Part shown: piece after piece, positions 1-19,823 of the stretch | Layout of the letters: every line of letters starts with the position of its first letter | Position numbering within the stretch: position 1 is the stretch's first letter | Source: a virus | Taxonomy: Duplodnaviria > Heunggongvirae > Uroviricota > Caudoviricetes | DNA: 19,823 bases | IMG/VR virus record: IMGVR_UViG_2585427795_000005 | Strand: one strand, 5' to 3' | Made by a program: the position numbers and the translations under genes | Notes under the pieces: model-generated | Told to the model about the DNA's origin: nothing | What the model saw: the letters and a program-made list of their open reading frames with translations, nothing else | Database searches by the model: none

Positions 1-104
1 ATTTAGCACCGACGTAGCCCCACTGTTCGTCCATTTCAGCGCAGACAATCACATCACTGCCCGGTTGTATGCGCGAGGTTACCGACTGCGGCCTGAGTTT
101 TTTA
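1..104 (-). CDS. insB: IS1 insB, 5' portion only (rest lies outside the window), reached by -1 frameshift from insA
   Basis: Minus-strand frame downstream of the A6C slippery site translates [34 protein letters not shown], the InsB N-terminal region; boundaries approximate. Confidence 0.6.
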
Positions 105-354
105 AGTGACGTAAAACCGTGTTGAGGCCAACGCCCATAATGCGGGCAGTTGCCCGGCATCCAACGCCATTCATGGCCATATCAATGATTTTCTGGTGCG
201 TACCGGGTTGAGAAGCGGTGTAAGTGAACTGCAGTTGCCATGTTTTACGGCAGTGAGAGCAGAGATAGCGCTGATGTCCGGCGGTGCTTTTGCCGTTACG
301 CACCACCCCGTCAGTAGCTGAACAGGAGGGACAGCTGATAGAAACAGAAGCCAC
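79..354 (-). CDS. insA: IS1 InsA, transposition inhibitor / N-terminal part of the InsAB' transposase
   Basis: 91-aa translation [18 protein letters not shown]...LKNSGRSR matches the IS1 InsA sequence as I recall it; zinc-finger CxxC...CxxC plus HTH. Confidence 0.93.
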
Positions 355-382
355 TGGAGCACCTCAAAAACACCATCATACA

Positions 383-980
383 CTAAATCAGTAAGTTGGC
401 AGCATCACCGATGATGTTTATATATGACGCTATCAGCGATGAGTCATCACGACTATCCACTTCACAAGCCATTGCCCTGATGTAGTCGGCGCTGGCAACG
501 TTGTTGTATTCCGTCGCAAAGCAACAGAGTAACGTCAGAACATGCTCTGTCGTTATTTCGCTCCAATTGATGTTGAAAAATTCATCGCCTTTTTTATCGT
601 GTTCGGAATCGAAGATGCTTTGGTGGAGGATGTATTTGCCGGATTCCTTGCGCGGTAACTTGATTGCTTTCTGGCGTTCCAGCTCCTTATAAATCTGCAT
701 TGCCTCAATTAGTACCGGCCTGCCGTTCATGAAGGGATCGCGCAACCTTACACGCTGGCCAACTCGACCAGTAATAAAGCTGTTTTCCTCTTCCACCAGC
801 ACGATAAAACCCTTTTCCTCTTTTTCTCGCAATTCGCGCAGCAGCTGGAGTTCCATGTCGCGGCGGCGTTCAGGGTAGCTGGTCCGCTCAGCCATTATCA
901 GCTCGTTATTGATCCATGCAGCAGTCATTGACGCCGGTTTGCCGACGCTCATCGAAACAACGCATATTTTCTTATCCATA
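383..980 (-). CDS. Hypothetical backbone protein, 3' end truncated by the IS1 insertion; occupies the position I recall for P1 mat, downstream of ref
   Basis: ORF with ATG at 980 preceded by AGGGG (the track start at 1006 is GTG). The last eight codons (GDAANLLI, then stop at 383..385) are encoded by the IS1 terminal repeat, so the native C-terminus is lost. Confidence 0.5.
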
Positions 981-1167
981 GCGCCCCTACAAAAAAGAAA
1001 AGCCACCAGCGGCGGCTTAGCAATACAACTGAAGGTAGCGCCCGGTACTCAGACTGTGCCGTCCATGGAATATTTGAAAAGGGATCCATCCGTACCGGGC
1101 GTGTGATGATTCTGACTGAAGTCACTTGTCAGTTGTCAATCATTTATCATTAAAAATAATATATTTA

Positions 1168-1728
1168 TTAGTGCATGATGTTTGCCATCTCATAGGCGTC
1201 AGCCAGTAACTCCATCTCTGACTTGTTCAGCAGGGTGAATTCTTTCTTGCCTCCAACCACACCATCGGCATGAACAGGGACCAGCCAGGGGTATTTTGCT
1301 CTTACTTCAGCCGGTGCTGCATGCTGGTGGTGCCATCTACAAAGTGGCAATTGCTTTTTATGACAACCCGGCGCGGTACGACCAGCGATATGGTGCAGAG
1401 ACACCTCATTAGATATTACTCCATGCATATAGCAGGCAATGCAGGGGAGAGCGCCAAGAGCATTGGCGATGCGCCGTTCCTCCGCCGTTGGTGTTCTCCC
1501 CTTCAAGCCACGAGATTTTATTTTTACAGCGCTTTTCCGCGTTTTGCTGGCTGGTGGGCGCTCTTTCTGTTTAGCGATACGGCGGTCGATAGTATCTCGC
1601 ATTTTCTGATATTGAGATTCTCGCCAGACCGGATCAGCCAACTTCTCCCGTTGCCGAGCGATCGCTCGTTCTCTGGCTGCCTTCTGCCACTTGCGGCACT
1701 GTTCAATTTTTTGTTCGATTGTTTTCAT
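1168..1728 (-). CDS. ref: Ref, recombination enhancement function (HNH-type endonuclease)
   Basis: 186-aa translation MKTIEQKIEQCRKWQ...; Cys/His HNH-like motifs (CIACYMHG...HHIAG...CHKKQLPLCRWHH); size and position downstream of cre as in P1; C1 operator upstream. Confidence 0.85.
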   Translation of the reverse strand: MKTIEQKIEQCRKWQKAARERAIARQREKLADPVWRESQYQKMRDTIDRRIAKQKERPPASKTRKSAVKIKSRGLKGRTPTAEERRIANALGALPCIACYMHGVISNEVSLHHIAGRTAPGCHKKQLPLCRWHHQHAAPAEVRAKYPWLVPVHADGVVGGKKEFTLLNKSEMELLADAYEMANIMH

Positions 1729-1734
1729 ATGGTC

Positions 1735-1761
1735 AAAAAAAAGGCGGCCTAATGGCCGCCT
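1735..1761 (-). terminator. Intrinsic terminator-like hairpin plus T-run immediately upstream of the ref start codon
   Basis: Minus strand reads AGGCGGCC-ATTA-GGCCGCCT followed by TTTTTTTT, then GACCAT and the ATG of ref; 8-bp GC-rich stem. Confidence 0.5.
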
Positions 1762-1813
1762 ATGATGTCAAGGAGTTAAGTAATGGCACGTCTTCGTAGT
1801 TGACAAAAACTGC

Positions 1814-1843
1814 GGCTCAATTATAGCAATCAATTAGAGCAAT
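1814..1843 (-). promoter_or_regulatory. C1 repressor operator upstream of ref, with a weaker overlapping tandem site, and a -10 TATAAT
   Basis: Minus strand ATTGCTCTAATTGATTG (1827..1843, 14/17 to consensus) and ATTGCTATAATTGAGCC (1814..1830); minus-strand TATAAT at 1820..1825. Confidence 0.65.
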
Positions 1844-1909
1844 GGTAGATATTTTGTTTATCGCGAATCACATTTTTTCACTTCAGTACCTGTGTGCTAT
1901 ACTCCTTCT

Positions 1910-1920
1910 TGATTGATTGG
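1910..1920 (-). repeat. Copy 1 of a recurring 11-mer (minus strand CCAATCAATCA), followed by AAGGAG
   Basis: Exact 11-mer also at 3609..3619 and 16947..16957; here followed by AAGGAG ... GTGAAAAAATG, but the ATG is immediately followed by TGA. Confidence 0.6.
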
Positions 1921-1949
1921 ATGCGGAATACAAACCCGCTCTTTTGTGC

Positions 1950-1979
1950 AGCCTGGCTCCTTGCCAGGCTTTTTTTTAT
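1950..1979 (+). terminator. Rho-independent terminator on the plus strand, convergent with the cra-position ORF
   Basis: Plus strand AGCCTGGC-TCCTT-GCCAGGCT followed by TTTTTTTTAT. Confidence 0.45.
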
Positions 1980-2287
1980 TTCATCATGGAAGCTGTTAAC
2001 GCTTTGGACCTTGCTGAACTGATTGTGAGGGCTTTGTTAACGAGCCCCAGAAATTCGACAAACTCAGACATCACTTTACCAAGACCGCGCCGTGCTTCTT
2101 CCTCGGTGGCATTCATTACGAAATGTTCAGCACTACGCATACTTTTGACAGGAAACGCAACGGATATTGAGTCAATATCAGGCATTCTATCGCTCAGCTT
2201 TACAGTGACAATGACGGCTGGCGACTGAATATTAGTGCTTACAGACAGCACTACATATTTTCCGTCGATGTTGAAATCCTTTCTCAT
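1976..2287 (-). CDS. Hypothetical 103-aa protein at the position of P1 cra (cre-associated), directly downstream of cre
   Basis: ORF with GGTGG just upstream of the ATG; preferred over the overlapping plus-strand ORF 1917..2228, which starts at TTG and reads through the terminator hairpin. Identity with Cra is positional only. Confidence 0.5.
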   Translation of the reverse strand: MRKDFNIDGKYVVLSVSTNIQSPAVIVTVKLSDRMPDIDSISVAFPVKSMRSAEHFVMNATEEEARRGLGKVMSEFVEFLGLVNKALTISSARSKALTASMMK

Positions 2288-2303
2288 ATGCCACCATAAA
2301 TAT

Positions 2304-2320
2304 CAAATAATTAGAGCAAT
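2304..2320 (-). promoter_or_regulatory. C1 operator between the cre stop and the downstream ORF
   Basis: Minus strand ATTGCTCTAATTATTTG (14/17); minus-strand CATAAT -10-like hexamer directly upstream at 2323..2328. Confidence 0.6.
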
Positions 2321-2337
2321 TTATTATGCGTTGACGG

Positions 2338-3369
2338 CTAATCACCATCTTCCAGCAGGCGCACCATTGCCCCCGTTTCACTATCCAGATTACGGATATA
2401 GTTCATGACAATATTTACGTTGGTCCAGCCACCAGCTTGCATGATCTCCGGTATTGAAACTCCGGCGCGGGCCATATCTCGCGCGGCTCCGACACGGGCA
2501 CTGTGTCCAGACCAGGCCAGGTACCTCTGACCAGAGTCATCCTTAGCCCCGTAAATCAATCGGTGAGTTGCTTCAAAAATCCCTTCCAGGGCGCGAGTTG
2601 ATAGCTGGCTGGTGGATGATGGCGAGGCAACACCATTTTTTCTGACCCGGCAAAACAAGTAGTTATTCGGATCATCAGCCACACCAGAGACAGAAATCCA
2701 TCGCTCGACCAGTTTAGTTACCCCCAGGCTAAGTGCCTTCTCTACACCTGCGGTGCTAACCAGCGTTTTCGTTCTGCCAATATGGATTAACATTCTCCCA
2801 CCGTCAGTACGTGAGATATCTTTAACCCTGATCCTGGCAATTTCGGCTATACGTAACAGGGTGTTATAAGCAATCCCCAGAAATGCCAGATTACGTATAT
2901 CCTGGCAGCGATCGCTATTTTCCATGAGTGAACGAACCTGGTCGAAATCAGTGCGTTCGAACGCTAGTGCCTGTTTTGCACGTTCACCGGCATCAACGTT
3001 TTCTTTTCGGATCCGCCGCATGACCAGTGAAACAGCGTTGCTGTCACTTGGTCGTGGCAGCCCGGACCGACGATGAAGCATGTTTAGCTGGCCCAAATGT
3101 TGCTGGATAGTTTTTACTGCCAGACCGCGCGCCTGAAGATATAGAAGATAATCGCGAACATCTTCAGGTTCTGCGGGAAACCATTTCCGGTTATTCAACT
3201 TGCACCATGCCGCCCACGACCGGCAAACGGACAGAAGCATTTTCCAGGTATGCTCAGAAAACGCCTGGCGATCCCTGAACATGTCCATCAGGTTCTTGCG
3301 AACCTCATCACTCGTTGCATCGACCGGTAATGCAGGCAAATTTTGGTGTACGGTCAGTAAATTGGACAT
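2338..3369 (-). CDS. cre: Cre site-specific tyrosine recombinase
   Basis: 343-aa translation MSNLLTVHQNLPALPVDATSDEVRKNLMDMFRDRQAFSEHTWK...MVRLLEDGD is recognisably P1 Cre with a few substitutions; loxP lies about 410 bp upstream. Confidence 0.97.
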   Translation of the reverse strand: MSNLLTVHQNLPALPVDATSDEVRKNLMDMFRDRQAFSEHTWKMLLSVCRSWAAWCKLNNRKWFPAEPEDVRDYLLYLQARGLAVKTIQQHLGQLNMLHRRSGLPRPSDSNAVSLVMRRIRKENVDAGERAKQALAFERTDFDQVRSLMENSDRCQDIRNLAFLGIAYNTLLRIAEIARIRVKDISRTDGGRMLIHIGRTKTLVSTAGVEKALSLGVTKLVERWISVSGVADDPNNYLFCRVRKNGVASPSSTSQLSTRALEGIFEATHRLIYGAKDDSGQRYLAWSGHSARVGAARDMARAGVSIPEIMQAGGWTNVNIVMNYIRNLDSETGAMVRLLEDGD

Positions 3370-3376
3370 TTAACAC

Positions 3377-3598
3377 TCAGATAATGGTTTTAAGTAAAGT
3401 GTACAGGATCGGCTCTGCCTTTACCTGTTTATGGTTCTCGTCATAGAAACGCCAGCGACCGCGCGTGCGTTCTATTTTCTCTTCACCGCGCGATAATGAC
3501 AGTTGACAACTATCACAATCAAACCCTTTTGCCCGCCAGTAACCACGGTTTTTCTCAAGCTCAATATGAGTGGACACTTTAGCAGCTGAATATCCCAT
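3377..3598 (-). CDS. Possible small ORF (73 aa) in the cre upstream region
   Basis: ATG preceded by AGAGGTG and by the conserved CCAATCAATCA element; ends 8 bp before the cre start. I do not recall an annotated P1 gene here, so it may be regulatory sequence. Confidence 0.25.
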   Translation of the reverse strand: MGYSAAKVSTHIELEKNRGYWRAKGFDCDSCQLSLSRGEEKIERTRGRWRFYDENHKQVKAEPILYTLLKTII

Positions 3599-3608
3599 TT
3601 TTCACCTC

Positions 3609-3619
3609 TGATTGATTGG
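3609..3619 (-). repeat. Copy 2 of the recurring 11-mer (minus strand CCAATCAATCA-GAGGTGAAAAATG)
   Basis: Exact 11-mer; followed by an SD and the ATG of the 73-aa ORF. Confidence 0.6.
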
Positions 3620-3779
3620 TGGTGCTAAGTGCGCTACGCGAAATCTGGAGCACTAACACTGCCAACATTTCGCAGATTTTACGTAGCGCAACCTTGATCA
3701 AATGATCACTATTTGACCTGATAAGGTATTGAACTGTATGGATTTACAGGTAAATTGATCATGTTCAATAACCCTTAAG

Positions 3780-3813
3780 ATAACTTCGTATAATGTATGC
3801 TATACGAAGTTAT
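3780..3813. other. loxP: loxP recombination site
   Basis: Exact ATAACTTCGTATA-ATGTATGC-TATACGAAGTTAT (13-bp inverted repeats around an 8-bp spacer). Confidence 0.98.
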
Positions 3814-3856
3814 TAGGTCCGAAGAGGAGTTTACGTCCAGCTGCGCACAAAAATCA

Positions 3857-3873
3857 AGAATTATTAGAGCAAT
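3857..3873 (-). promoter_or_regulatory. C1 operator in the immC region between loxP and coi
   Basis: Minus strand ATTGCTCTAATAATTCT (14/17). Confidence 0.65.
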
Positions 3874-3939
3874 AAATTTTGAGAGAAAAATCCCACTCCA
3901 CCAGCTAAAAACTGGATTGTTTTTCATAGTTGTTTGACA

Positions 3940-3956
3940 ATTGCTCTAATAAATTA
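3940..3956 (+). promoter_or_regulatory. C1 operator in immC, overlapping a TTGACA -35-like hexamer
   Basis: Plus strand ATTGCTCTAATAAATTA (16/17); TTGACA at 3935..3940; divergent with the 3857..3873 site. Confidence 0.7.
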
Positions 3957-4194
3957 TAGTTTTGCCGACGTTACGTAATACGACTTTGGATTCACTATTT
4001 AATGTGTCTTCAGCGTTGTAGAGCGGCTCAGAAGGAAATGAGCAAACAGGGAAACCTTATACAACGGCATTACAGCTATGCATTGCTCATCTTACACACA
4101 GCGCAATGTTGTTAGATTACCCCAGCATGGATCATGGGTGAAACAGTAGGTCAGAGCTTCAGGCTCTGTGTTGTCAATACAGTGAGGCATAATT

Positions 4195-4404
4195 ATGGCT
4201 TTCATTCAACCAACCATCGACGACGTTAGACATTGCTCTAACGCTTTATCTGTAGACCCTGCCGAAACCGACGCTGCCCGCGCCATTGCTGAACACTACT
4301 CAAAGATATCCAATCAGGAGTACCGCATCACCCAAGACGACCTGGATGACCTCACTGACACAATCGAATATCTCATGGCAACTAACCAGTTAGACTCACA
4401 ATAA
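4195..4404 (+). CDS. coi: Coi-like C1 inactivator
   Basis: 69-aa ORF directly upstream of c1, with TGAGG 8 nt before the ATG; size and position match P1 Coi. The sequence itself is not independently recognised. Confidence 0.65.
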   Translation: MAFIQPTIDDVRHCSNALSVDPAETDAARAIAEHYSKISNQEYRITQDDLDDLTDTIEYLMATNQLDSQ

Positions 4405-4420
4405 ATGCACTAATAAATCT
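4404..4420 (+). promoter_or_regulatory. Weak C1-operator-like site between coi and c1
   Basis: AATGCACTAATAAATCT (14/17 by my count); a TATAAT hexamer lies downstream at 4442..4447. Confidence 0.35.
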
Positions 4421-4514
4421 ATTATTTTTGTTTGATCCCTCTATAATATAGGTCAGTAATGACCGGTTTTCTCAGCCGGGCGTTATTGACCATGTCAATT
4501 CTGGAGGAGGATCA

Positions 4515-5366
4515 ATGATAAATTATGTCTACGGCGAACAACTGTACCAGGAGTTCGTCAGCTTCAGGGATCTCTTTCTAAAAAAAGCTGTTGCACGCGC
4601 CCAACACGTTGATACAGCCAGCGACGGTCGTCCTGTACGCCCGGTTGTCGTTCTACCGTTCAAAGAAACTGACAGCATTCAGGCTGAAATTGATAAATGG
4701 ACTTTAATGGCGCGGGAACTGGAACAGTACCCAGACCTCAATATCCCAAAGACTATTTTATATCCAGTGCCTAACATCCTTCGCGGTGTGCGTAAGGTTA
4801 CAACTTATCAGACAGAGGCTGTGAACAGCGTCAACATGACCGCTGGCCGCATTATTCATCTGATTGATAAGGACATTCGCATCCAGAAAAGCGCGGGGAT
4901 CAATGAGCACAGTGCGAAATACATAGAGAACCTGGAAGCAACAAAAGAGCTAATGAAGCAGTACCCGGAGGATGAAAAATTCCGTATGCGTGTACACGGC
5001 TTTAGCGAAACAATGTTGCGCGTCCATTACATTTCCAGTAGCCCTAACTACAATGATGGTAAATCAGTTAGTTACCATGTGCCGCTGTGTGGTGTGTTTA
5101 TCTGCGATGAAACTCTCCGTGATGGAATCATCATCAACGGTGAATTCGAGAAAGCAAAATTTAGCCTTTATGACTCTATAGAACCGATCATCTGCGACCG
5201 CTGGCCGCAGGCAAAAATATATCGCCTGGCAGATATTGAAAATGTAAAAAAACAAATTGCCATCACTCGCGAAGAGAAAAAGGTCAAATCAGCCGCATCA
5301 GTTACGCGCAGCCGTAAAACTAAGAAGGGGCAGCCAGTAAACGACAACCCCGAAAGCGCGCAATAG
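4515..5366 (+). CDS. c1: C1 repressor of lysis (primary immunity repressor)
   Basis: 283-aa translation MINYVYGEQLYQEFVSFRDLFLKKAVARAQHVD...; strong GGAGGAGG SD; its cognate operator consensus recurs through the window. Confidence 0.9.
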   Translation: MINYVYGEQLYQEFVSFRDLFLKKAVARAQHVDTASDGRPVRPVVVLPFKETDSIQAEIDKWTLMARELEQYPDLNIPKTILYPVPNILRGVRKVTTYQTEAVNSVNMTAGRIIHLIDKDIRIQKSAGINEHSAKYIENLEATKELMKQYPEDEKFRMRVHGFSETMLRVHYISSSPNYNDGKSVSYHVPLCGVFICDETLRDGIIINGEFEKAKFSLYDSIEPIICDRWPQAKIYRLADIENVKKQIAITREEKKVKSAASVTRSRKTKKGQPVNDNPESAQ

Positions 5367-5390
5367 TTTCTATCCGGCATGGTCAATGAG

Positions 5391-6875
5391 TTATTCATTA
5401 AGCCATGCCAGAGCTTCATCAACCTGCGCTTCGTCTTCGACGCTAAGCACTTCATCCTGGGGAACATAATCCGCCAGCATAGCGAAACAATATGTATCCC
5501 AATGGTCTGGTGAGTGCAGGTTGAGTTTTTTCTTCATATCCTCCTTACTCATCACCTTCCATTGACCTGCGGAGTTAATCCCTACAGGGATTTTCGACGC
5601 TTCCTCAATAGTTTCATTACCCTTATCCAGTCTCATACGACCAGATTTTACGGCCTCTGCGGCTTGAACGTTGGCATAAGCACGTTTATCAAAGTACAGG
5701 CTCTTATCCTCACGGCTATGCATCTTTTTACCCCAGCGTATACGCTGTACGGTAATACCATAATACTCGTACATCAGATCCGCTGTTGCTTTACCCAGGC
5801 CATCGCCGTCTATCGCTATGGTGATATTTGGGAATCGCTCAGGATTACATTCTGCGAAAATTTTGGCGGCAAGCTGCGTTTCTGTAACGTCTGTGTATTC
5901 CAGCATTCGATAGTTGATTACACGGCGTTTGTTTCGCTGGCCGGACACCATCATGATATTGATAACGGACTTATCCCTTCCCGTACCACCAGCAACGTCT
6001 ACACATGCAAGCCAGCCCCATCCTTTGGCAATCTTGACTTTCCGCCGCGTTGCACGTTCAACCTCATCACGTCCAAGAAGGAAGCCATCCTGTGATTTAG
6101 GGAATAGGCCGCGTACCTTAATCATGTACATAGGGTTATCGCGCCCGCCGTACTCCGCCAGCTTCATTTTGATAAATGCTGGCGTTACCAGCGGTGATTC
6201 CTCACTGTTAAGCGTGATCGCCGTATAAACGCCATCAGGGTTACCAGGACGCTTGGCCAGTTTATGGTGAGTATCGTAGAAATAGCCGCTTGGGCGTGTA
6301 GGCTGTGACAGTAATAAGATGCGGTTATCCTGTCCGGTAAGAGCACCGGTGATGATACCGAAAGCTCTATCACTGACACCGGAGGCTTCATCGATAATAT
6401 ACAGAAGATGATCTGCGTGTTCACCGGCGAGAGCTTCTTCACTTCCCAGACGAAAGCCCTTCGGCACTACAGTCCATACACCTTTACCAGTAACCTCATA
6501 GAAAGCGGTTTCTGTCAGAACAAAATAATCAGCAAGCCATGGAAAACGGCTGGTGGCAGTAGCCCAGTTTATCTTGATGTACTTGAAAATACCGGTCATT
6601 ACCTGCTGAATTTTGTTCGCAACGATAATGGCGCGGGCACCGGGATACATGATTATGAACAACATGATCATGATAGAAGTCATGTCTGATTTTCCGGTAC
6701 CGTGACCAGACGAAACAGATGTCTTGCTACCCTGTTCCTGCACAGACTCAATAATCAGATCCTGCTGCCAGGTAGGTGTTTTGCCGAACAAAACATCAGC
6801 GGCCGCAATCCAGTCATAACGATATAGCGCCACCAGCTCGCGCCAACGTGGATCCGTTACGCAACTTCTGGCCAT
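5391..6875 (-). CDS. pacB: PacB, terminase large subunit
   Basis: 494-aa ORF translationally coupled to pacA (TAATG overlap at 6875); convergent with c1 as in P1. Confidence 0.88.
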
Positions 6876-8068
6876 TAATCATCATCCCCGTATAGCTTGC
6901 GGGTAACTTCTTCGTCTTCCTCCTCGTCTTCGTCCAGGTCTTGTTCCAGCCATGGGTCGTTTGATACACCTTCAGTATCAACATCTCCATAACCGCCTGT
7001 ATCAACGATATCGGCGATTTCTTCCCTACGCTGCTCAATCCACAATGCGGCATCGGCGCGGCGGTTGGCGGCCCGTTCTCGCGCAACTTTGTCCAGATCT
7101 TCAAGAGAAGGGCCACCGACGGCTGTTTGCCTTTCCTCATCATCGGTATTGGTCTTAGGAGCACGCAGATCGGCTTTGATTTGCTCCAGCATCAGGGGCG
7201 GCACTTTCCCGCCATGCGCCTCGATGAATTCAGCTGCTTCCAGCACTGACCAGTTATTTTCACGCTTTCGTTCGTATGCCAGCTTAACAATGCCAGCTTG
7301 CCCCATAGACAAAGCGTGCTTTTCCGCCTCCCGGCTTTCTTTTCGATAGTTATTCCGGATGCTGTAAATGGTGTTGATCAGGCTGCTTATCTGCGCGGAA
7401 CAGCTGTTTAGCATGCTCGCGATACGGTATTCAGGCGGAGTACCTTCATCATCGTCTTTTTGCTGATCGCGCATTTCCTGCACCAGGCGAATACACGTAT
7501 CCCTGGCGTTCTCCAGCATAAGGAGATGAGAAAGAGACTTTTCAAGAAGAGTGGTTTCCAGAACATCGGCCCCGGACCGACGCAACATAGCGCGCGCGGC
7601 CTTCCGCGCTTCAACGTTATCTATCAGGTAATCGCCAGCTTCGAATTCAAAGCGTTCACCATCATCATCCAGGGTGTCGCGTTCCAGGCGATCACGTAAG
7701 GTCCGGTGGGCGCGGGTGATCACGTCATGATCATCTGAACGATCATTTATGCGCTTATTTTGGCGCTTCGCATTCTCGACTGCGGCACTGATAACGGCAT
7801 TAACTCTCTGTTTTTCCGCTATTTCAGCCGCAATATGATCACCTGCATGTTGATCATTAGAGTGATCAATGATCATGCTTTTTAGTGGCTTCCTGACTGG
7901 CTTATTTGGCTTGCGGCTGTCCGCAGTCCTGGTGTCTTCTTTGAAGGCACGGAGATAACGACGTGCGGTATTAGGGTTAAGATTAAACTCGGCGGCATAC
8001 TGTGCGATGGTGTAACCACCATCTCGCGCCAGGCGAGCAAAATTCTTCTTGTGATCGTCCCAGGTCAC
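6875..8068 (-). CDS. pacA: PacA, terminase small subunit / pac recognition protein
   Basis: 397-aa ORF with GTG start preceded by AGGAAG; N-terminal HTH-like region; acidic C-terminal tail; the pac site lies inside the coding sequence. Confidence 0.88.
7717..7875. other. pac: pac packaging site: seven TGATCA/G hexamers (three plus four) in about 160 bp, each carrying a Dam GATC
   Basis: Hexamers at 7717, 7728, 7740 (CGATCA) and 7826, 7851, 7863, 7870; an additional CGATCA at 7689 lies outside. Confidence 0.85.
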
Positions 8069-8153
8069 TTATGCTTCCTTTCGTAAAAACTCTTTTTGAC
8101 GCGAGGGTAACGAAAGTCACATGTCAAAAGGCCCGGAACGGGCAAGCAATCAA

Positions 8154-8606
8154 TCAGATACGTGCGGATGTGGCATTACCGTAATGACGGTGCTGACGGG
8201 CCACCCTATTGAAAAGTTGACGCGCCATTACCCAAGGCTGGTGCTCCCGGCGTTCCTTTTCGTCCTGCGTCATATAGAGTTCGTTCTGGAGTTTTTCATC
8301 AAACCGGCGCGGAGCGCGGCTACGGCGAAAGAATTCAGGATTCAGAGAGTGGATCTGAAATCTACGTGGGCGTGTACTGTCATCAATCAAAACAGACGAA
8401 TACTTAGACACAGCGATAGCCTTTAAGCGCAGATAAACATCGCGCTTATCGACATCCAGATGCGGGTATTCCTTTTCAAGAATTGCTGCGAGTTCTTTCG
8501 CTGATAGAAGAGATTTAGTGCGGATCATGTAATCCGCAATCTCGTACGATGTTATTCGTGAGTGATTTATTTCCATGAAGTGGCGTCCCTGCCAGTTAAG
8601 TAACAT
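8154..8606 (-). CDS. lpa: Lpa-like late promoter activator (P1 gene 10 position)
   Basis: 150-aa ORF immediately upstream of pacA; AGGTGA SD; minus-strand TTGACA at 8630..8635 and a C1 operator at 8677..8693 upstream. Identification is positional. Confidence 0.65.
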   Translation of the reverse strand: MLLNWQGRHFMEINHSRITSYEIADYMIRTKSLLSAKELAAILEKEYPHLDVDKRDVYLRLKAIAVSKYSSVLIDDSTRPRRFQIHSLNPEFFRRSRAPRRFDEKLQNELYMTQDEKERREHQPWVMARQLFNRVARQHRHYGNATSARI

Positions 8607-8676
8607 CCTGTCACCTACTGATTAGCCCATGTCAACTAATCAACGTCGAATATAATACCCTCGATTAAAGAAATAG

Positions 8677-8693
8677 CAATACATTAGAGCAAT
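8677..8693 (-). promoter_or_regulatory. C1 operator upstream of lpa
   Basis: Minus strand ATTGCTCTAATGTATTG (14/17), with an adjacent TAGCAAT partial site as at the ref operator. Confidence 0.6.
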
Positions 8694-8694
8694 T

Positions 8695-9738: not shown

Positions 9739-9765
9739 ATCACACCTTTAATCACTGATTGGGCT

Positions 9766-10551: not shown

Positions 10552-10558
10552 AAATACC

Positions 10559-12286: not shown

Positions 12287-12290
<4 letters not shown>
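10728..12290 (+). CDS. hsdM: Type I restriction-modification methyltransferase subunit HsdM (type IC, EcoR124-like)
   Basis: 520-aa ORF with AdoMet motif DPAAGSG and catalytic NPPY; overlaps hsdS by ATGA. The true start may be the second ATG at 10734. Confidence 0.93.
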
Positions 12291-13528
<1,238 letters not shown>

Positions 13529-13649
13529 TTGACCATTATTACAGACCGAACCATCGTAACATCCGGTCTGTATATAGACTATTTTTTACGCGCCGGAAGT
13601 CACTCTTAACGCCTTTCCGGCCCTTGCCAGGCGGCACAAAGGATGCGCT

Positions 13650-16600
13650 ATGACTCATCAAACACACACCATTGCTGAATCCAATAACTTTATCGTCCTT
13701 GATAAGTACATCAAAGCTGAGCAAACAAGCGACAGCTACCAGAGCGAATCGGACCTGGAACGTGAACTGATTCAGGACCTGCGGAATCAGGGTTATGAAT
13801 TTATTTCCGTAAAATCACAGTCGGCAATGCTGTCTAATGTTCGGGAACAGCTTCAGAGCCTCAATGGTGTGATGTTTAATGACAGCGAGTGGCGGCGCTT
13901 CACGGAGCAGTATCTGGACAACCCCAGCGATGGTATTCTGGATAAAACCCGTAAAATCCATATCGACTATATCTGCGACTTTATTTTTGACGACGGGCGA
14001 CTTGAGAACATCTATTTGATAGATAAAAAGAATCTCATGCGCAATAAGGTGCAGATTATCCAGCAGTTTGAACAGACGGGTTCTCATGCTAACCGTTATG
14101 ACGTCACGATCCTGGTTAATGGTTTACCGCTGGTGCAAATCGAACTAAAAAAACGCGGGGTGGCGATTCGTGAGGCTTTCAACCAGATACATCGTTACAG
14201 TAAAGAGAGTTTTAACAACGAAAATTCCCTGTTTAAGTATCTGCAACTGTTTGTCATTTCTAACGGCACCGATACCCGTTATTTTGCCAACACGACAAAG
14301 CGCGATAAAAACAGTTTTGACTTCACCATGAATTGGGCGAAATCAGACAATACGCTGATTAAAGACCTCAAAGACTTTACCGCTACCTTTTTCCAGAAAC
14401 ATACTCTGCTGAATGTTCTGGTGAACTACAGCGTTTTTGACAGTAGTCAGACGCTACTGGTGATGCGACCGTACCAGATTGCCGCCACCGAGCGCATTCT
14501 GTGGAAAATTAAGAGTTCCTTTACAGCGAAGAACTGGTCAAAACCGGAAAGCGGTGGGTATATCTGGCACACTACCGGTTCTGGTAAAACCCTCACCAGC
14601 TTTAAAGCCGCGCGTCTGGCAACAGAGCTGGACTTTATTGATAAAGTCTTCTTTGTGGTCGACAGGAAAGACCTCGATTACCAGACCATGAAGGAATATC
14701 AGCGTTTTTCGCCAGACAGCGTCAACGGCTCGGAAAATACCGCAGGCCTTAAACGAAATCTGGATAAGGACGATAACAAAATTATCGTCACTACTATTCA
14801 GAAACTCAATAACCTGATGAAAGCAGAAAGCGACCTGCCTGTATACAATCAGCAAGTGGTGTTTATATTTGATGAATGTCACCGCAGCCAGTTTGGAGAA
14901 GCGCAGAAAAACCTGAAGAAGAAATTCAAACGCTATTATCAGTTTGGTTTTACCGGCACCCCTATTTTCCCGGAAAATGCCTTAGGCTCAGAAACGACCG
15001 CCAGCGTATTTGGTCGTGAATTGCATTCGTATGTAATTACCGATGCGATTCGTGATGAAAAAGTGCTCAAATTCAAGGTGGACTACAACGATGTGCGGCC
15101 ACAGTTTAAGTCTTTAGAGACAGAAACTGACGAGAAAAAACTAAGTGCGGCTGAAAATCAGCAGGCGTTTCTTCATCCCATGCGTATACAGGAAATCACG
15201 CAATATATTCTGAATAATTTCCGCCAGAAAACCCACCGCACCTTCCCTGGCTCAAAAGGTTTTAATGCTATGTTGGCAGTGAGCAGCGTGGATGCTGCAA
15301 AAGCCTATTACGCGGCGTTTAAACGGTTACAAGAGGAAGCAGCTAATAAATCGGCTACCTATAAACCGCTGCGTGTTGCGACAATCTTCTCCTTTGCTGC
15401 CAATGAAGAACAAAATGCCATTGGTGAAATTTCCGATGAAACTTTTGATACCAGCGCAATGGACAGCAGTGCTAAAGAGTTTCTTGACGCTGCAATTCGT
15501 GAGTATAACAGCTATTTTAAAACTAACTTCAGCACCGACGGTAACGGTTTTCAGAACTACTATCGCGATTTAGCCCAACGGGTTAAAAATCAGGATATCG
15601 ATCTGTTAATTGTCGTGGGGATGTTTTTAACTGGCTTCGATGCTCCAACATTGAACACGCTATTCGTCGATAAAAACCTGCGTTTTCACGGCTTGATGCA
15701 GGCATTTTCCCGCACCAACCGTATTTATGATGCAACTAAAACCTTCGGTAATATCGTCACTTTCCGGGATCTGGAACGCTCAACTATTGATGCCATAACG
15801 CTGTTTGGTGACAAAAACACCAAAAATGTGGTTTTAGAAAAGAGTTATGCAGAGTATATGGAAGGCTTTACTGATGCTGCCACTGGTGAAGCTAAGCGCG
15901 GCTTTATGGCAGTAGTTTCAGAACTGGAACAACGGTTCCCTGACCCTGCCAGTATTGAAAGTGAAAAAGAGAAGAAAGACTTCGTTAAACTGTTTGGTGA
16001 ATACCTGCGTGCCGAGAACATCCTGCAAAACTATGATGAATTTGCCACGCTGAAAGCCCTGCAACAAATCGATCTTAGCGATCCTGTTGCAGTAGAAAAA
16101 TTCAAAGCAGAACATTATGTGGATGATGAAAAGCTCGCTGAATTGCAAACAATTCGTCTCCCTGCTGATCGCAAGATTCAGGATTATCGTTCTGCCTATA
16201 ACGATATTCGCGACTGGCAGCGCCGTGAGAAAGAAGCTGAGAAAAAAGAGAAATCAACCACTGACTGGGATGACGTAGTTTTTGAGGTCGATTTGCTGAA
16301 GTCTCAGGAAATAAACCTGGATTATATCCTTGGACTGATTTTCGAACACAACAGACAAAATAAAGGCAAGGGCGAAATGATCGAAGAGGTTAAACGCTTA
16401 ATTCGTTCAAGCCTAGGGAACCGTGCTAAAGAGGGCCTGGTGGTCGATTTTATTCAGCAAACGAACCTGGATGATTTACCGGACAAAGCCAGCATCATTG
16501 ACGCATTCTTTACGTTTGCTCAACGCGAACAGCAACGTGAAGCAGAAGCATTGATAAAAGAAGAAAATCTCAATGAAGATGCAGCAAAACGCTATATTCG

Positions 16601-16766
16601 CACGTCTTTAAAACGCGAATATGCCACAGAAAATGGCACAGAATTAAACGAAACATTACCAAAACTTAGTCCGTTGAATCCGCAATATAAAACGAAAAAA
16701 CAGGCAGTTTTCCAGAAAATCGTCTCGTTTATTGAGAAGTTTAAAGGCGTAGGCGGAAAAATATAG
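13650..16766 (+). CDS. hsdR: Type I R-M restriction subunit HsdR (type IC)
   Basis: 1038 aa; nuclease motif region (D...IELK), Walker A TGSGKT, DECH box; AAAGGA SD; separated from hsdS by a 121-bp gap consistent with its own promoter. Confidence 0.93.
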
Positions 16767-16785
16767 CCCAATTCGTGTTTTTCTT

Positions 16786-16813
16786 GCGGGTTCTTAATTA
16801 AACCCGCAAGAGA
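16786..16813. other. 10-bp-stem hairpin just downstream of hsdR
   Basis: CTTGCGGGTT-CTTAATTA-AACCCGCAAG, T-run on the 5' side only. A terminator role is uncertain. Confidence 0.3.
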
Positions 16814-16845
16814 CCGTGGGGTTTCAAATGGCTAATATACTCCCC

Positions 16846-16932
16846 TTACCCATGCGCGACGATGCCGCCAAAAGTGATAGAGAACAGCCAGAAATAGATC
16901 GCGGCCATAATGATTTTGAATGCCGTGTTCAT
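16846..16932 (-). CDS. Candidate small hydrophobic protein (28 aa, single predicted transmembrane helix)
   Basis: Hand-read ORF MNTAFKIIMAAIYFWLFSITFGGIVAHG, below the track's size cutoff; AGGAG SD 8 nt upstream; conserved CCAATCAATCA leader; C1 operator upstream at 17015..17031. Confidence 0.35.
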   Translation of the reverse strand: MNTAFKIIMAAIYFWLFSITFGGIVAHG

Positions 16933-16946
16933 ATTTTCAGCTCCTG

Positions 16947-16957
16947 TGATTGATTGG
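16947..16957 (-). repeat. Copy 3 of the recurring 11-mer (minus strand CCAATCAATCA-C-AGGAG-CTGAAAATATG)
   Basis: Exact 11-mer immediately upstream of the SD of the 28-aa ORF. Confidence 0.6.
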
Positions 16958-16959
16958 AT

Positions 16960-16990
16960 ACATGCCGCGCCTTGCGGCATGTTTTTATTT
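16960..16990 (+). terminator. Rho-independent terminator on the plus strand (9-bp stem, then TTTTTATTT)
   Basis: ACATGCCGC-GCCTT-GCGGCATGT followed by a T-run; lies in the 5' leader of the minus-strand small ORF and is convergent with it. Confidence 0.55.
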
Positions 16991-17014
16991 TCACTTTCCC
17001 TGTTTTAAAAATCA

Positions 17015-17031
17015 TGATTTATTAGAGCAAT
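17015..17031 (-). promoter_or_regulatory. C1 operator upstream of the 28-aa ORF
   Basis: Minus strand ATTGCTCTAATAAATCA (15/17), followed by TTTAAAAC; overlaps the stop codon of the upstream ORF. Confidence 0.65.
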
Positions 17032-17537
17032 TATTGTTGATGAAGAAGCGCATTTTCATACTCCCTGACCATTAACGTAAGCACGCCGTGCCTCCTGAAA
17101 ACACGCGCCACTTCAATCTTATCTTCCAGCGCGAACGCAATTTTGCTTATACCAATTTTCTTAAGGAGATCAATCTTTGCTGGGCCGTCATTTCTGTCAT
17201 CGGTGGCAGGACGCATAGATAGCAAAGGCTCAGCCCCGTTTGTTACGTACTTCCGCAGCCAGGCTCGTGTTTTATCCCTTGCGATCTCACAGCGCCCGGT
17301 TACAAACCAGACCGTGTAAACGTTAAATAACTGGCGCACCATATCAATAACTGGAGTGATTGGAGTATCGGTGTCACAGGCGAGATTAAACTCGTTCCAG
17401 TCCTTTGTTAATGCACCTTTACCTGGTGGCGGAAGCAAATGCAGTCTGTCTTCAGTTGCCTCTGATATTGTTCCATCAATATCGACTATGACGATATACG
17501 GACGTTCCTGGTGTGCATGTTTATTGAAAATACTCAA
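17031..17537 (-). CDS. HAD-superfamily phosphatase-like protein (168 aa), possibly a polynucleotide 3'-phosphatase or acid phosphatase
   Basis: HAD motif I IVIVDIDGT (DxDGT), motif II VWFVTGR, lysine and DD motifs (ARDKTRAW, ATDDRND); TTG start 4 nt after a strong AGGAGG SD. Confidence 0.6.
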   Translation of the reverse strand: MSIFNKHAHQERPYIVIVDIDGTISEATEDRLHLLPPPGKGALTKDWNEFNLACDTDTPITPVIDMVRQLFNVYTVWFVTGRCEIARDKTRAWLRKYVTNGAEPLLSMRPATDDRNDGPAKIDLLKKIGISKIAFALEDKIEVARVFRRHGVLTLMVREYENALLHQQ

Positions 17538-17554
17538 ATGCCCTCCTCATTGGA

Positions 17555-17590
17555 CGAAAAAAATGCTGGTGGGCGCACTCCACCAGCATT
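17555..17590 (-). terminator. Intrinsic terminator on the minus strand between the 371-aa ORF and the HAD-like gene
   Basis: Minus strand AATGCTGGTGG-AGTGCGC-CCACCAGCATT followed by TTTTTTT. Confidence 0.5.
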
Positions 17591-17609
17591 AAAAGTGACA
17601 CTGTAACTA

Positions 17610-18725
17610 TCAGCGGACGTAAATAGTGCCGCCGTTCTCTTTTTCCCATGCATCGCTACGTGCATAGCAAACATCGAGAAGTCTTCTTGCCGCTGTTTCC
17701 TCTAAACCCAATTCGACAACCAACTGCTCATGACGGCGGGTAACCACATCAAACAGAGTATGCAACCCTTTAGTTGCCAGATCATCAATGAATTCCGGTT
17801 CGAACGGCAGCTCTGCATCTGCCAACATAACCTCTTGCGCCCACTCAACTCGACGGACCAATTCCGGGCGGCGGCTTTCCATCTCTTTACAGATCAATTC
17901 ATGGAAGAACTCTACCCAACCTTCCGGCTGGAACTCGCGGAAAATGGCCAACGGCTGGAAGTTTGGCATCAACCATTCGTTGATTCGGATATCAATGGCA
18001 TAGCCCATGTCGCAGCAGAACTGATAAGCAAAGTCCAGCTTAGAAACGATATAAGGACGCTCGTTATTGAACTCTTTAGGCGATGAGATCCCATAAGCCA
18101 GGAGGCGCGGGAAGAAGGAGATTTGCCCTAACGTCGGATGAAGTTTGCTTGCAGGGAAACGGCGCTCAGTAATGCCATACATTTCCTTCTTGAGCGTCGC
18201 AAATTTGGCATTCTCATTAACCAGCGCGGTAACCTCTGCTTTTTTATTAGCAAATGCCACGCGCGCTTCGCTTGCATCTTTAATAGTTTTTTTGAGCTGT
18301 TGGTTAAGGTCGGCGACCTGCTTACGCAGTTCCTGTCGCTCGCTTTTAGCTTTGTTATAGCGTTTCTCAAGGTTAAAAGGATCAAGTTTCATGATCTCTT
18401 TATATTGAGATTTTAGCGTTGAAATCTGTGAGTTCCGCAGTTCAACCATCGCGGTCATTTCATTGAGTTTTGTTTCCAGCTCAATGCTTATACGTTCGGC
18501 ATTATCAGCACGCTGGTTGGCGTCATGCGTCGCATCGTCGATCGCGTCCTGTTGCTGGCGTTTCAAATGTTCAATTTGCAGCTGAAGCTCTTCAATTTCT
18601 TTACCCTTCAGACCGAGATCCAACTGCATATTTTCAGCTGCATCTACCAGGGAGTTATGGCTATCAGCTTCTGCGTTATAAACATCAATAAGCTGTGCGT
18701 GAAGCATCTCCGCTGACTGAACCAC
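17610..18725 (-). CDS. Hypothetical protein (371 aa): N-terminal coiled-coil region and an uncharacterised C-terminal domain
   Basis: Long ORF; N-terminal half rich in heptad-like E/K/Q/L segments. Start uncertain (GTG at 18725 or ATG at 18707, neither with a good SD). Confidence 0.6.
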   Translation of the reverse strand: MVQSAEMLHAQLIDVYNAEADSHNSLVDAAENMQLDLGLKGKEIEELQLQIEHLKRQQQDAIDDATHDANQRADNAERISIELETKLNEMTAMVELRNSQISTLKSQYKEIMKLDPFNLEKRYNKAKSERQELRKQVADLNQQLKKTIKDASEARVAFANKKAEVTALVNENAKFATLKKEMYGITERRFPASKLHPTLGQISFFPRLLAYGISSPKEFNNERPYIVSKLDFAYQFCCDMGYAIDIRINEWLMPNFQPLAIFREFQPEGWVEFFHELICKEMESRRPELVRRVEWAQEVMLADAELPFEPEFIDDLATKGLHTLFDVVTRRHEQLVVELGLEETAARRLLDVCYARSDAWEKENGGTIYVR

Positions 18726-18873
18726 ATTATCAAAAAAACGTGCTGTGAGGTCATCACAACTAACGCGGCGTTGCGCGGCCCGGATGTTCTGGATAATGGC
18801 CGGGATACCGGCATTCAGGACATCAGGGATAGATACATTTTCGATTGATTGCTTTTATGCTGAAGTGCTCATT

Positions 18874-19092
18874 TCAAAGTTCCGTATTAGCTTGTGCTTC
18901 GGTCATTTTTCCTAAGTATGAAGGAGGAAGGACTACGCAATTTGTATCCAGTCCCTCACCTATGGCAGCCTGTAAAATTCTGGCTAAGGTGAGTCTCTTG
19001 TTGCGATACCTGGTGATGACATGCCTGATACCGCCGGTCGGTGTAACAAAGGCGATCAGCCAGTAGTGATATTTCCGTCGGAATGGCCACAT
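18874..19092 (-). CDS. Hypothetical small protein (72 aa), first gene downstream of a paired C1 operator
   Basis: ATG preceded by AAGGTG; no alternative upstream start in frame. Confidence 0.35.
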   Translation of the reverse strand: MWPFRRKYHYWLIAFVTPTGGIRHVITRYRNKRLTLARILQAAIGEGLDTNCVVLPPSYLGKMTEAQANTEL

Positions 19093-19106
19093 AGTGCACC
19101 TTGTAA

Positions 19107-19123
19107 ATTGCTCTAATAAAAAA
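19107..19123 (+). promoter_or_regulatory. C1 operator
   Basis: Plus strand ATTGCTCTAATAAAAAA (14/17); 15 bp upstream of the 72-aa ORF start. Confidence 0.6.
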
Positions 19124-19147
19124 CGTGATGAGTGTACATCACGTTTT
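19120..19147. other. Perfect 11-bp inverted repeat with a 6-nt loop between the two operators
   Basis: AAAACGTGATG-AGTGTA-CATCACGTTTT. Confidence 0.5.
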
Positions 19148-19155
19148 AAAAATAT

Positions 19156-19172
19156 GGAATTATTAGAGCAAT
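19156..19172 (-). promoter_or_regulatory. C1 operator, divergent partner of 19107..19123
   Basis: Minus strand ATTGCTCTAATAATTCC (14/17), followed on the minus strand by TTTTTAAAAC as at 17015..17031. Confidence 0.65.
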
Positions 19173-19383
19173 ATTATTCTGATTCTTGCTCAAAAAACGC
19201 GCTAATGAGAGGAAGCCAATCCTCTGACACTTCACGCGGTCGCGGTTTGCCATGGAAGAAGATTATTCGGCAGTCTTTTGGTAATGCCCCATTCCCCCTG
19301 GAGTAGCGCGCACTTGCATATTTCGAACCAGGTTCCACAACATCGGCCTTGTAACTTACAAACCATCCCGGATACAGATCCTG

Positions 19384-19823
19384 GGTAATGACTCCAACTT
19401 ATTGATAGTGTTTTATGTTCAGATAATGCCCGATGACTTTGTCATGCAGCTCCACCGATTTTGAGAACGACAGCGACTTCCGTCCCAGCCGTGCCAGGTG
19501 CTGCCTCAGATTCAGGTTATGCCGCTCAATTCGCTGCGTATATCGCTTGCTGATTACGTGCAGCTTTCCCTTCAGGCGGGATTCATACAGCGGCCAGCCA
19601 TCCGTCATCCATATCACCACGTCAAAGGGTGACAGCAGGCTCATAAGACGCCCCAGCGTCGCCATAGTGCGTTCACCGAATACGTGCGCAACAACCGTCT
19701 TCCGGAGCCTGTCATACGCGTAAAACAGCCAGCGCTGGCGCGATTTAGCCCCGACGTATCCCCACTGTTCGTCCATTTCCGCGCAGACGATGACGTCACT
19801 GCCCGGCTGTATGCGCGAGGTTA
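19384..19823 (-). mobile_element. IS1 insertion sequence, second partial copy (continues right of the window), a divergent isoform
   Basis: Terminal repeat GGTAATGACTCCAACTTATTGATAGTG from 19384; InsB ORF on the minus strand; same orientation as the left copy. Confidence 0.93.
19399..19823 (-). CDS. insB: IS1 InsB (transposase catalytic part), 5' end outside the window
   Basis: Translation ...[125 protein letters not shown]. Confidence 0.9.

Follow-up and report, generated by a model that had tools for sequence, protein, structure and literature searches.

Some large IS1-flanked units, such as the ~23-kb r-determinant of R100, are known to move by transposition or to be excised. Among P1-like phage-plasmids, IS1 is a long-known resident of P1 (PMC9603915; PMC10999674), and isaA-IS1-isaB is a recognized variable region (PMC9603915). 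In P1Cm/Tn9, the phage gained the cat marker by recombination between IS1 copies (PMC10999674). Recombination between the IS1 copies of the R100/NR1 r-determinant yields a non-replicating circle with one IS1, and a recA-dependent circle has been described (PMC7986276). IS1X2 is documented as a cause of adjacent deletions in E. coli, which begin at an IS1 end and have variable endpoints (PMC10569738).

Here, we analyzed a 19,823-nt stretch of DNA (the window) that begins and ends in IS1. Like the resident IS1 of P1 and the P1Cm/Tn9 derivatives, this is a case of IS1 in a P1-family phage-plasmid. However, the copies of the window lie in mat and pmgQ, unlike the isaA/isaB site of P1, which has no IS1 in pmgQ, and they flank backbone genes and no resistance gene, unlike P1Cm/Tn9. 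As in the R100/NR1 r-determinant, a segment of ~20 kb is found between direct IS1 repeats. Loss or amplification of the r-determinant, which consists of accessory resistance cargo, does no harm, whereas the segment in the window carries the element's own repressor, addiction, and packaging genes, and neither its excision nor its amplification was seen. The IS1X2-deletion system shares its isoform with the left copy of the window, and its pattern is present in relatives of the window's plasmid, but no deletion is evident in the window itself, whose interior, except for the absence of variable modules carried by relatives, is colinear with those that are intact.

Our preferred reading, to which we assign a probability of about three in four, is that the window, a 19-kb draft contig, comes from a P1-like phage-plasmid with a type IC hsdMSR that underwent two separate IS1 events, and that no block movement took place. 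An IS1X2-type copy adjoins mat by its IRL, with the last 23 mat codons removed, and an IS1A/B-type copy adjoins pmgQ by its IRR, with only the last 69 pmgQ codons left. Each event may have been a simple insertion or an IS1-adjacent deletion, the two were presumably independent, and the remaining P1-like backbone would lie beyond both copies. The features are collected in Table 1.

Table 1. Annotated features of the window, with the grounds for each assignment.
Feature	Position	Strand	Basis or remark
Left IS1 (IS1X2-type)	1..409	-	IS1 positions 409..1; contig ends inside element
insA of left IS1	79..354	-	Intact, 91 aa; matches both InsA Pfam domains
mat (maturation control), truncated	383..979	-	Translation; 190 native codons + 8 codons from IS1 IRL
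Left IRL GGTGATGCTGCCAACTTACTGAT	387..409	-	Intact; other end of this copy outside contig
ref (RecA-dependent nuclease)	1168..1728	-	PF16786, E=3e-51
c8 homologue (lysogeny establishment)	1976..2287	-	Position as P1 c8; CP098997.1 'lysogeny establishment protein'
cre recombinase	2338..3369	-	Phage_integrase domain; 96.8% identity to P1 cre record X03453
cra homologue, 73 aa	3377..3598	-	ORF; position as P1 cra
loxP, 34-bp site	3780..3813	-	Exact, 0 mismatches; 0 expected by chance
coi (c1 inactivator), 69 aa	4195..4404	+	Gene call; CP098997.1 'c1 repressor inactivator'
c1 repressor	4515..5366	+	PF27008 Phage_P7_repressor_C1
pacB (large terminase)	5391..6875	-	Matches pacB of P1, P7, SJ46
pacA	6875..8068	-	TGATCR hexamers, pac-like cluster, at 7689..7745 and 7836..7875
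lpa (late promoter activator)	8154..8606	-	PF25716, E=7e-57
pdcB (DUF968)	8695..9738	-	PF06147
pdcA, 59 aa	9766..9945	-	Gene call in L012 (source contig); CP098997.1 'PdcA protein'
doc toxin	9950..10330	-	Fic/DOC domain
phd antitoxin	10330..10551	-	PF02604
hsdM (type I methylase)	10734..12290	+	N6_Mtase, E=2e-121; HsdM_N
hsdS	12287..13528	+	Methylase_S in two stretches
hsdR, EcoR124-like (type IC)	13650..16766	+	HSDR_N, SWI2_SNF2, T1R_D3-like, EcoR124_C
pap (phosphatase)	17031..17537	-	HAD_PNKP; P1 pap
pmgS homologue	17610..18872	-	P1 pmgS; ochre stop at codon 6
pmgR homologue, 72 aa	18874..19092	-	Gene call in identical contig L013; P1 pmgR
pmgQ 3' fragment	19174..19383	-	Last 69 codons; cut by right IS1; P1 pmgQ homology
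Right IS1 (IS1A/IS1B-type)	19384..19823	-	IS1 positions 768..329; contig ends inside element
Right IRR GGTAATGACTCCAACTTATTGAT	19384..19406	-	Intact; other end of this copy outside contig
insB part, right IS1	19399..19776	-	DDE_Tnp_IS1, E=3e-74

The first consideration is what the window is. By sequence identity, its whole length is the complete NCBI contig JORJ01000069.1 of the draft E. coli assembly GCA_000713115.1, an identification based on a sequence (L012) that equals window 2287..19823 exactly. A sibling assembly, GCA_000713095.1 (JORH01), has the same contig at 19,832 bp, likewise ending inside IS1 at different depths: 526 bases into the left copy versus 409 in the window and, by arithmetic, ~332 bases into the right copy versus 440. 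Across the 10,979 bases compared, the two contigs differ at only 2 positions, both in IS1. A literature search for the assembly accessions returned no match. IS1 lies at both edges because the assembler stopped at the repeat, and since the window is a whole draft contig, its IS1 edges are no evidence of a bounded unit. The bracketing of the segment by IS1 is a product of assembly; the observation is real but ordinary.

The first-pass annotation had placed both edges inside IS1, with insA/insB on the minus strand, and this reading of the ends was borne out by exact matches. The left piece has 0 mismatches over 409 bases to the IS1X2 copy of E. coli ECCHD184, and IS1X2 copies in many complete E. 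coli genomes are 100% identical to it. The right piece has none over 440 bases to common IS1A/IS1B-type copies, versus 41 of 440 to IS1X2. Assignment to IS1 relied on ~23-bp terminal inverted repeats (IRL/IRR) and on insA and insB' frames with an A6C motif; both were found, each copy being partial, with the A6C frameshift motif TTAAAAAAC in the partial left copy. Since each copy reads on the minus strand, the two form a direct repeat. Over the 81 bases that they share (1..81 versus 19743..19823; IS1 329..409), we counted exactly 7 mismatches, as had been reported. Six of these (IS1 positions 345, 357, 360, 363, 372, and 402) distinguish IS1X2 from IS1A, and the seventh, at position 393, is specific to the right copy.

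One caveat applies to how the left copy was typed. All 44 of the 768 positions at which IS1X2 and IS1A differ lie beyond position 261, so only the final 148 contig bases give the type of this copy. The sibling contig disagrees with the window at diagnostic positions 357 and 372 and is A-type from position 462; this reliance on 148 bases at a contig end, with a sibling assembly differing at 2 positions, counts against our preferred reading. At both contig ends, the interior of IS1 may in part represent a consensus drawn from more than one copy. It is conceivable that the DNA is a 19.7-kb circle or tandem array in which a single IS1 connects 19383 with 410, the 7 differences being consensus noise from collapsed IS1 reads. 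The overlap of the contig ends in IS1 coordinates 329..409 would fit this, as would the unstable consensus of the sibling assembly at IS1 positions 357, 372, and from 462. However, over their 409 and 440 bases, the two ends are exact matches to real isoforms that are widespread, and at least 5 diagnostic overlap differences remain in both assemblies. Further, neither the plasmid replicon nor the lytic replicon of P1 is present in the segment, in which every ORF of at least 80 aa is assigned to a P1 gene with no replication role, so it could not persist as a free circle. We consider a single copy extremely improbable. The comparisons instead support two different isoforms, as the first-pass annotation had argued, each of a known type, and not one copy seen twice through a circular assembly.

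Between the IS1 ends, 18,974 bases are P1-like backbone, in the order mat'-ref-c8-cre-cra-loxP-coi-c1-pacBA-lpa-pdcBA-doc-phd-hsdMSR-pap-pmgS-pmgR-'pmgQ. P1 and P7 are 95% identical to the window over shared parts, and the P1 gene order at loxP-cre, c1, pacAB, lpa, and phd/doc identifies it as Punavirus-type (P1-like) backbone, of which the replicons and structural genes would lie outside the contig. The contents listed at first pass (cre/loxP, immC, pac, phd/doc, and a complete type I restriction–modification system) were all recovered through the exact loxP, domain matches, and gene calls. The hsdM, hsdS, and hsdR genes are present and uninterrupted, and they are predicted to form an EcoR124-like (type IC) system. 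The hsdS target-recognition domains are unlike those of relatives; window 12341..13393 was matched only partly in one relative (L003).

Intact relatives show what this region looks like when free of IS1. Plasmid unnamed4 of E. coli AR_0372 (NZ_CP027133.1) is colinear with window 456..19383 at 97–98% identity, and the exceptions to colinearity with IS1-free relatives are two variable patches. This plasmid and vB_EcoM-673R5 keep the mat-to-pmgQ order at ~97.5% identity, and, as in the window, hsdMSR adjoins phd/doc in place of the P1 pmgT-to-humD region. Unlike the window, these P1-like relatives have no IS1 at either site and differ in their hsdS recognition domains, and in several of them an ant/icd/ash module, missing from the window, separates c1 from pacB. 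Beyond the left site, NZ_CP027133.1 continues into the mat 3' end, lxc, ulx, and darB, and beyond the right site into the pmgQ 5' part, ppp, and further genes. Empty sites are common: many plasmids without IS1 at the site are 100% identical to the 100 bases adjoining each IS1. A metagenome scaffold (L011) is 99.99% identical to the window; its remaining 17 kb were sought via the Ref and PacB proteins, but both are much too widespread for this, and none of the locations recovered was on this scaffold.

The first-pass annotation had gone further and viewed the segment as set up for IS1-mediated deletion, cointegration, or composite-transposon-like movement. Part of this stands: the IS1 ends are direct, recombination or transposition is possible in principle, and IS1 erosion is seen in relatives. 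The bounded unit does not, as the window is a whole draft contig in native P1-like order. The proposal to look for the same segment in other replicons led nowhere; plasmids, complete E. coli genomes, and phages gave no instance of the IS1-bounded unit, and its only further occurrences are on draft contigs from this lineage. In our judgment, it is very unlikely that the array is a working composite transposon or translocatable unit of ~20.5 kb, moving the cre/lox-immC-pac-phd/doc-hsd block between replicons. Direct IS1 copies do flank the segment, their inner terminal repeats and insA are intact, and large IS1-flanked units can transpose or excise. However, the segment keeps its backbone order, the unit was in no other context across all collections searched, and the copies are of different isoforms and so are not duplicates from one event. 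The inner flanks, GATGATGTT at the left IS1 and CAGATCCTG at the right, are unrelated, and two backbone genes are truncated with no discrete cargo. It is just as doubtful that the 19-kb block (c1/coi, cre-lox, pacAB, phd/doc, and type I restriction) is an IS1-bounded mobile unit that left the P1 backbone and now sits in another replicon; if it were, a phage immunity and defense package would be movable without the phage. Chromosomal copies were also considered as the block moving alone, which was rejected for NZ_CP007393.1, as it holds a whole P1-like prophage.

Both junctions damage backbone genes. The reading frame of mat runs into the IS1 IRL and ends in GDAANLLI and a stop, with the native last 23 codons lost. 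In NZ_CP086223.1, the identical mat allele is intact at 213 aa, with window 410 corresponding to locus 3001; the same allele is found in a 24.7-kb plasmid riddled with frameshifts (NZ_CP019263.1). The mat-IRL fusion protein (KEM33527.1/WP_072005723.1) was found on only 4 contigs. The left copy was also considered as the ancestral IS1 of P1, which was rejected because P1 has no IS1 between mat and res. At the right junction, intact pmgQ of NZ_CP027133.1 encodes 233 aa, and its homology to the window ends exactly at 19383 in the alignment. In pmgS, codon 6 has changed from CAA to TAA (18855..18857).

These junctions are rare. Neither had a full-length match in 72,556 plasmids, 5,426 complete E. 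coli genomes, or 50,697 phage records. Exact scans of both inner junctions gave 0 matches each in viral, genome, and metagenome contig collections, which are without the source assembly, so the zeros show rarity only. As a precedent for the preferred reading, the IS1 copies of a related plasmid, CP098997.1, entered by simple insertion, with target duplications of 9 bp and 8 bp. A predicted fusion of PmgQ(1-167) to the IS1 IRL tail was absent from a 15-billion-protein collection when sought as 20 guessed allele and duplication-length variants, truncated proteins being hidden in large clusters, and a homology search for it returned only full-length, frameshifted, or contig-cut forms.

The absence of that fusion would fit a rival reading in which IS1 is not followed directly by P1 backbone. 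One or both junctions may be IS1-adjacent deletion endpoints or products of IS1–IS1 recombination, and the window a 19-kb P1 remnant joined via IS1 to foreign DNA, such as a hybrid or IncF-type plasmid. We regard this as unlikely, though far from negligible. The window includes only the inner flanks of both IS1 copies and hence shows no target duplication, and the IS1 junctions of relatives in the same region resemble deletion endpoints; both points weigh against our preferred reading. IS1-bounded P1 remnants are present in pPK5074-91kb (IncFIB-typed), pL73-2, and p1 of strain A65EC, in which pap'-pmgS-pmgQ and phd/doc-pdcAB pieces of the same backbone as that of the window adjoin IS1. In pL73-2 and pPK5074-91kb, IS1 replaces the equivalent of window 10761..17209. 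All three have an IS1 in ppp, oriented as the right copy of the window, with another endpoint, and the IRL-side flank is common to two of the three, as expected of nested deletions. The ppp IS1 of pPK5074-91kb equals the right IS1 of the window over positions 329..768, and many of the top plasmid matches are 112–192 kb versus ~95 kb for the P1-like plasmids among the matches. The IS1X2 precedent described above points the same way. However, these three plasmids, unlike the window, are without hsdMSR and pacAB, and their IS1 junction positions differ; they are eroded, whereas the immunity, packaging, and addiction block of the window is complete. Because A/B-type 3' halves are very common, the one that the window and pPK5074-91kb share is not diagnostic. 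The fusion look-up used guessed alleles; it is therefore weak evidence against the preferred reading and uninformative for this one.

If the preferred reading of two IS1 events in a P1-like phage-plasmid is correct, direct copies would still allow recombination. Judging from established P1 biology, loss of the segment by deletion between the copies should be selected against, because c1, phd/doc, pacAB, and lpa would go with it and the excised circle would have no replicon. As a discovery, the locus carries little weight: both IS1 in P1-family elements and contig breaks at IS copies are routine. It serves as a caution: when both edges of a window fall in a repeat, they may be no more than the ends of a draft contig. 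For the biology of P1-like phage-plasmids, it adds a small data point on their erosion by IS1. Some other plasmids lack the entire hsd locus beside an IS1. In the lineage of the window, both mat and pmgQ are truncated and pmgS has an early stop, and later relatives carry an additional IS1 junction in hsdM.

Both edges of the window lie within IS1, on the minus strand in each case. A reading of both ends against IS1A and IS1F from E. coli K-12 sets the IS1 geometry: window 409..1 corresponds to IS1 positions 1..409, with the left inverted repeat (IRL) ending at 409, and window 19823..19384 corresponds to positions 329..768, with the right inverted repeat (IRR) starting at 19384. The insA gene and the partial insB gene match IS1 Pfam families. 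The 81 bases covered by both ends (IS1 positions 329..409) carry exactly 7 mismatches, as the first-pass annotation had read, and its view that the copies are distinct isoforms was also borne out. IS1X2 is equal to IS1A over positions 1..261 and mostly IS1F-like thereafter, with 44 of 768 positions differing from IS1A overall. Against an IS1X2 copy the left piece has 0/409 mismatches, and many complete E. coli genomes contain IS1X2 copies that match it at 100% identity; this typing comes solely from the terminal 148 bases of the contig. IS1A/IS1B-type copies, which are very common, match the right piece at 100% identity, and IS1X2 departs from it at 41 of 440 positions; its typing is secure, as there are diagnostic positions only a few bases from IRR. 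Since six of the seven overlap differences are positions separating IS1X2 from IS1A, both end sequences are real, known isoforms.

Between the IS1 ends, window 410..19383 comprises 18,974 bases of P1-like phage-plasmid backbone in native order: mat' (lacking its 3' end), ref, c8, cre, cra, loxP, coi, c1, pacB, pacA, lpa, pdcB, pdcA, doc, phd, hsdM, hsdS, hsdR, pap, pmgS, pmgR and 'pmgQ (lacking its 5' part). The cargo named in the first pass is all there: loxP, cre, ref, lpa, doc, c1, coi, phd and pdcA are present, as are a complete type I hsdM/hsdS/hsdR set and, for pac, a pac-like hexamer cluster inside pacA. The IS1-free P1-like plasmid NZ_CP027133.1 of E. coli AR_0372 is 97-98% identical to window 456..19383 and colinear with it, and there ordinary backbone runs on past both ends of the segment. 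The sole gaps are an ant/icd/ash module, which the window is without, and the variable hsdS recognition domains. At window 5366..5392, c1 directly adjoins pacB, where several close relatives have this antirepressor module of about 1.7 kb. The recognition domains (window 12341..13393) find only a partial match in the closest plasmids, and just 13 contigs carry the exact 413-aa HsdS, which makes this an uncommon specificity allele. Upstream of several genes lies a repeat family sharing ATTAGAGCAAT (complement of ATTGCTCTAAT); judged by the P1 operator consensus, these sites look like C1 repressor operators. At least the last two coincide with the P1-annotated OpmgT and OpmgR.

Coordinates of IS1 genes, loxP and repeat sites in the window
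Feature	Coordinates	Strand	Remark
insA	79..354	minus	
insB part	19399..19776	minus	
loxP	3780..3813		exact site
ATTAGAGCAAT repeat	1821..1845		
ATTAGAGCAAT repeat	2298..2322		
ATTAGAGCAAT repeat	3851..3875		
ATTAGAGCAAT repeat	8671..8695		
ATTAGAGCAAT repeat	17009..17033		
ATTAGAGCAAT repeat	19150..19174		

The best-supported reading is that two separate IS1 events hit one P1-like phage-plasmid, and that a fragmented assembly would then show both copies as contig ends. That the two copies are different isoforms speaks against their duplication in a single replicative event; transposition of the 19-kb block itself is argued against by its native gene order. The inner flanks beside the copies, GATGATGTT and CAGATCCTG, are unrelated. 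Junction-spanning queries gave 0 full-length matches for either junction in 72,556 plasmids, 5,426 complete E. coli genomes and 50,697 phage records, and exact junction patterns were absent from three contig collections. Of the composite-transposon-like arrangement proposed earlier, the direct IS1 ends are real, but the block sits in native P1 order between differing isoforms and the unit was not found in these other replicons. In NZ_CP007393.1, what had looked like a "chromosomal" copy of the block is an entire P1-like prophage.

Only 4 contigs, each 10-20 kb long, carry the Mat'::IS1 fusion. The right junction is found again in two data sets of later date, Logan SRR32364845 (locus L013) and GCA_050537485.1 (L014), with 100% identity over 7.2 kb. 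Both junctions are thus specific to a lineage, and they are always in the same P1 context. L013 (SRR32364845_142) and L014, equivalent to window 12183..19411, keep the pmgQ::IS1 junction. In L013 a further IRR end is joined to hsdM at window 12182|12183, so that the 7.2-kb piece is flanked by inward-facing IRR ends on both sides, which fits a new inverted insertion, or an IS1-mediated inversion/deletion, inactivating the methylase; L014 simply begins at window 12185. A 37,170-bp ENA metagenome scaffold is 99.987% identical to the window over the equivalent of 2287..18028. It departs from the P1 backbone inside pmgS (window 18028), with no IS called there, into unrelated lipocalin, MlrA-like and transthyretin-like genes. 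Either this is a recombinant or the scaffold is chimeric.

The truncated Mat protein and HsdS, looked up in public assemblies, trace the window to E. coli draft assembly GCA_000713115.1, in which it makes up one whole contig, JORJ01000069.1 (19,823 bp); locus L012 from there matches window 2287..19823 at every base. In the sibling assembly GCA_000713095.1 this contig (JORH01000161.1) is 19,832 bp long, reaching IS1 position 526 on the left rather than 409 and, by arithmetic, correspondingly less far into IS1 on the right. Since the window is a whole draft contig and its sibling stops at other IS1 depths, the edges mark where assembly broke off within a repeat. Among 10,979 bases compared, IS1 positions 357 and 372 are the only differences between the two contigs, and past position 462 in the sibling X2-type bases give way to A-type. 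Both are signs of a consensus mixture, and in part the IS1 interiors at these ends may blend the sequences of several copies.

At the left IS1, mat breaks off 72 bases short of its end, giving a 198-aa Mat'::IRL fusion protein, and the right IS1 cuts pmgQ, of which the last 69 codons remain. Empty sites exist for both: many plasmids match the 100 bases next to each IS1 at 100% identity and lack the element at that point. Each junction could have arisen by simple insertion or could be where an IS1-adjacent deletion ended, and relatives offer precedents for both. For example, both IS1 copies in CP098997.1 are simple insertions, since they have target duplications (9-bp and 8-bp). In pL73-2 and pPK5074-91kb, IS1 replaces the equivalent of window 10761..17209, removing hsdMSR plus part of pap. 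These two plasmids and p1 of strain A65EC carry IS1 in ppp with a different endpoint in each, and A65EC p1 and pPK5074-91kb share the outer flank, the pattern expected of nested deletions. All three are P1 remnants inside other plasmids (pPK5074-91kb is typed IncFIB); pacAB is also lost from pL73-2 and pPK5074-91kb. The reciprocal PmgQ-N::IS1 fusion protein that simple insertion predicts was absent in all 20 guessed variants; because the true allele may be a different one, this counts only weakly against simple insertion at pmgQ. In P1-like relatives (loci L003, L004 and L016-L035) the mat-lxc slot, whose place would be just outside the left IS1, varies in content: type III res/mod, RelA/SpoT, PIN, SIR2, DUF2971, acetyltransferase or nothing, depending on the plasmid. 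It looks like a defence-gene hot spot. Codon 6 of the minus-strand pmgS homologue is an ochre stop (TAA where relatives have CAA; window 18855..18857), which is not a read error, as L013 and L014 have the same sequence. Together with truncated mat and pmgQ, it suggests a P1-like element losing virion functions.

In principle the two copies could recombine. IS1X2 and IS1A are equal over positions 1..261, with the right copy seen only from 329. Recombination would yield a 19.7-kb circle without a replicon and a plasmid that lacks c1, coi, phd/doc, pacAB and lpa. By established P1 biology such a plasmid should be derepressed and exposed to Doc and should fail to package, so such deletions should be selected against. 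The R100 r-determinant, in contrast, excises between direct IS1 repeats (PMC7986276) and is dispensable, unlike a segment carrying c1, phd/doc, pacAB and lpa. IS1 is a classical P1 resident, and P1Cm arose by IS1-IS1 recombination (PMC10999674); P1-like phage-plasmids have recognised variable regions, an IS1 site among them (PMC9603915), and adjacent deletions caused by IS1X2 are documented (PMC10569738). The arrangement departs in nothing from these patterns. The bracketing reported in the first-pass annotation is real and its sequence was read accurately, and the structural significance given to it is an assembly artefact over ordinary IS1 activity.
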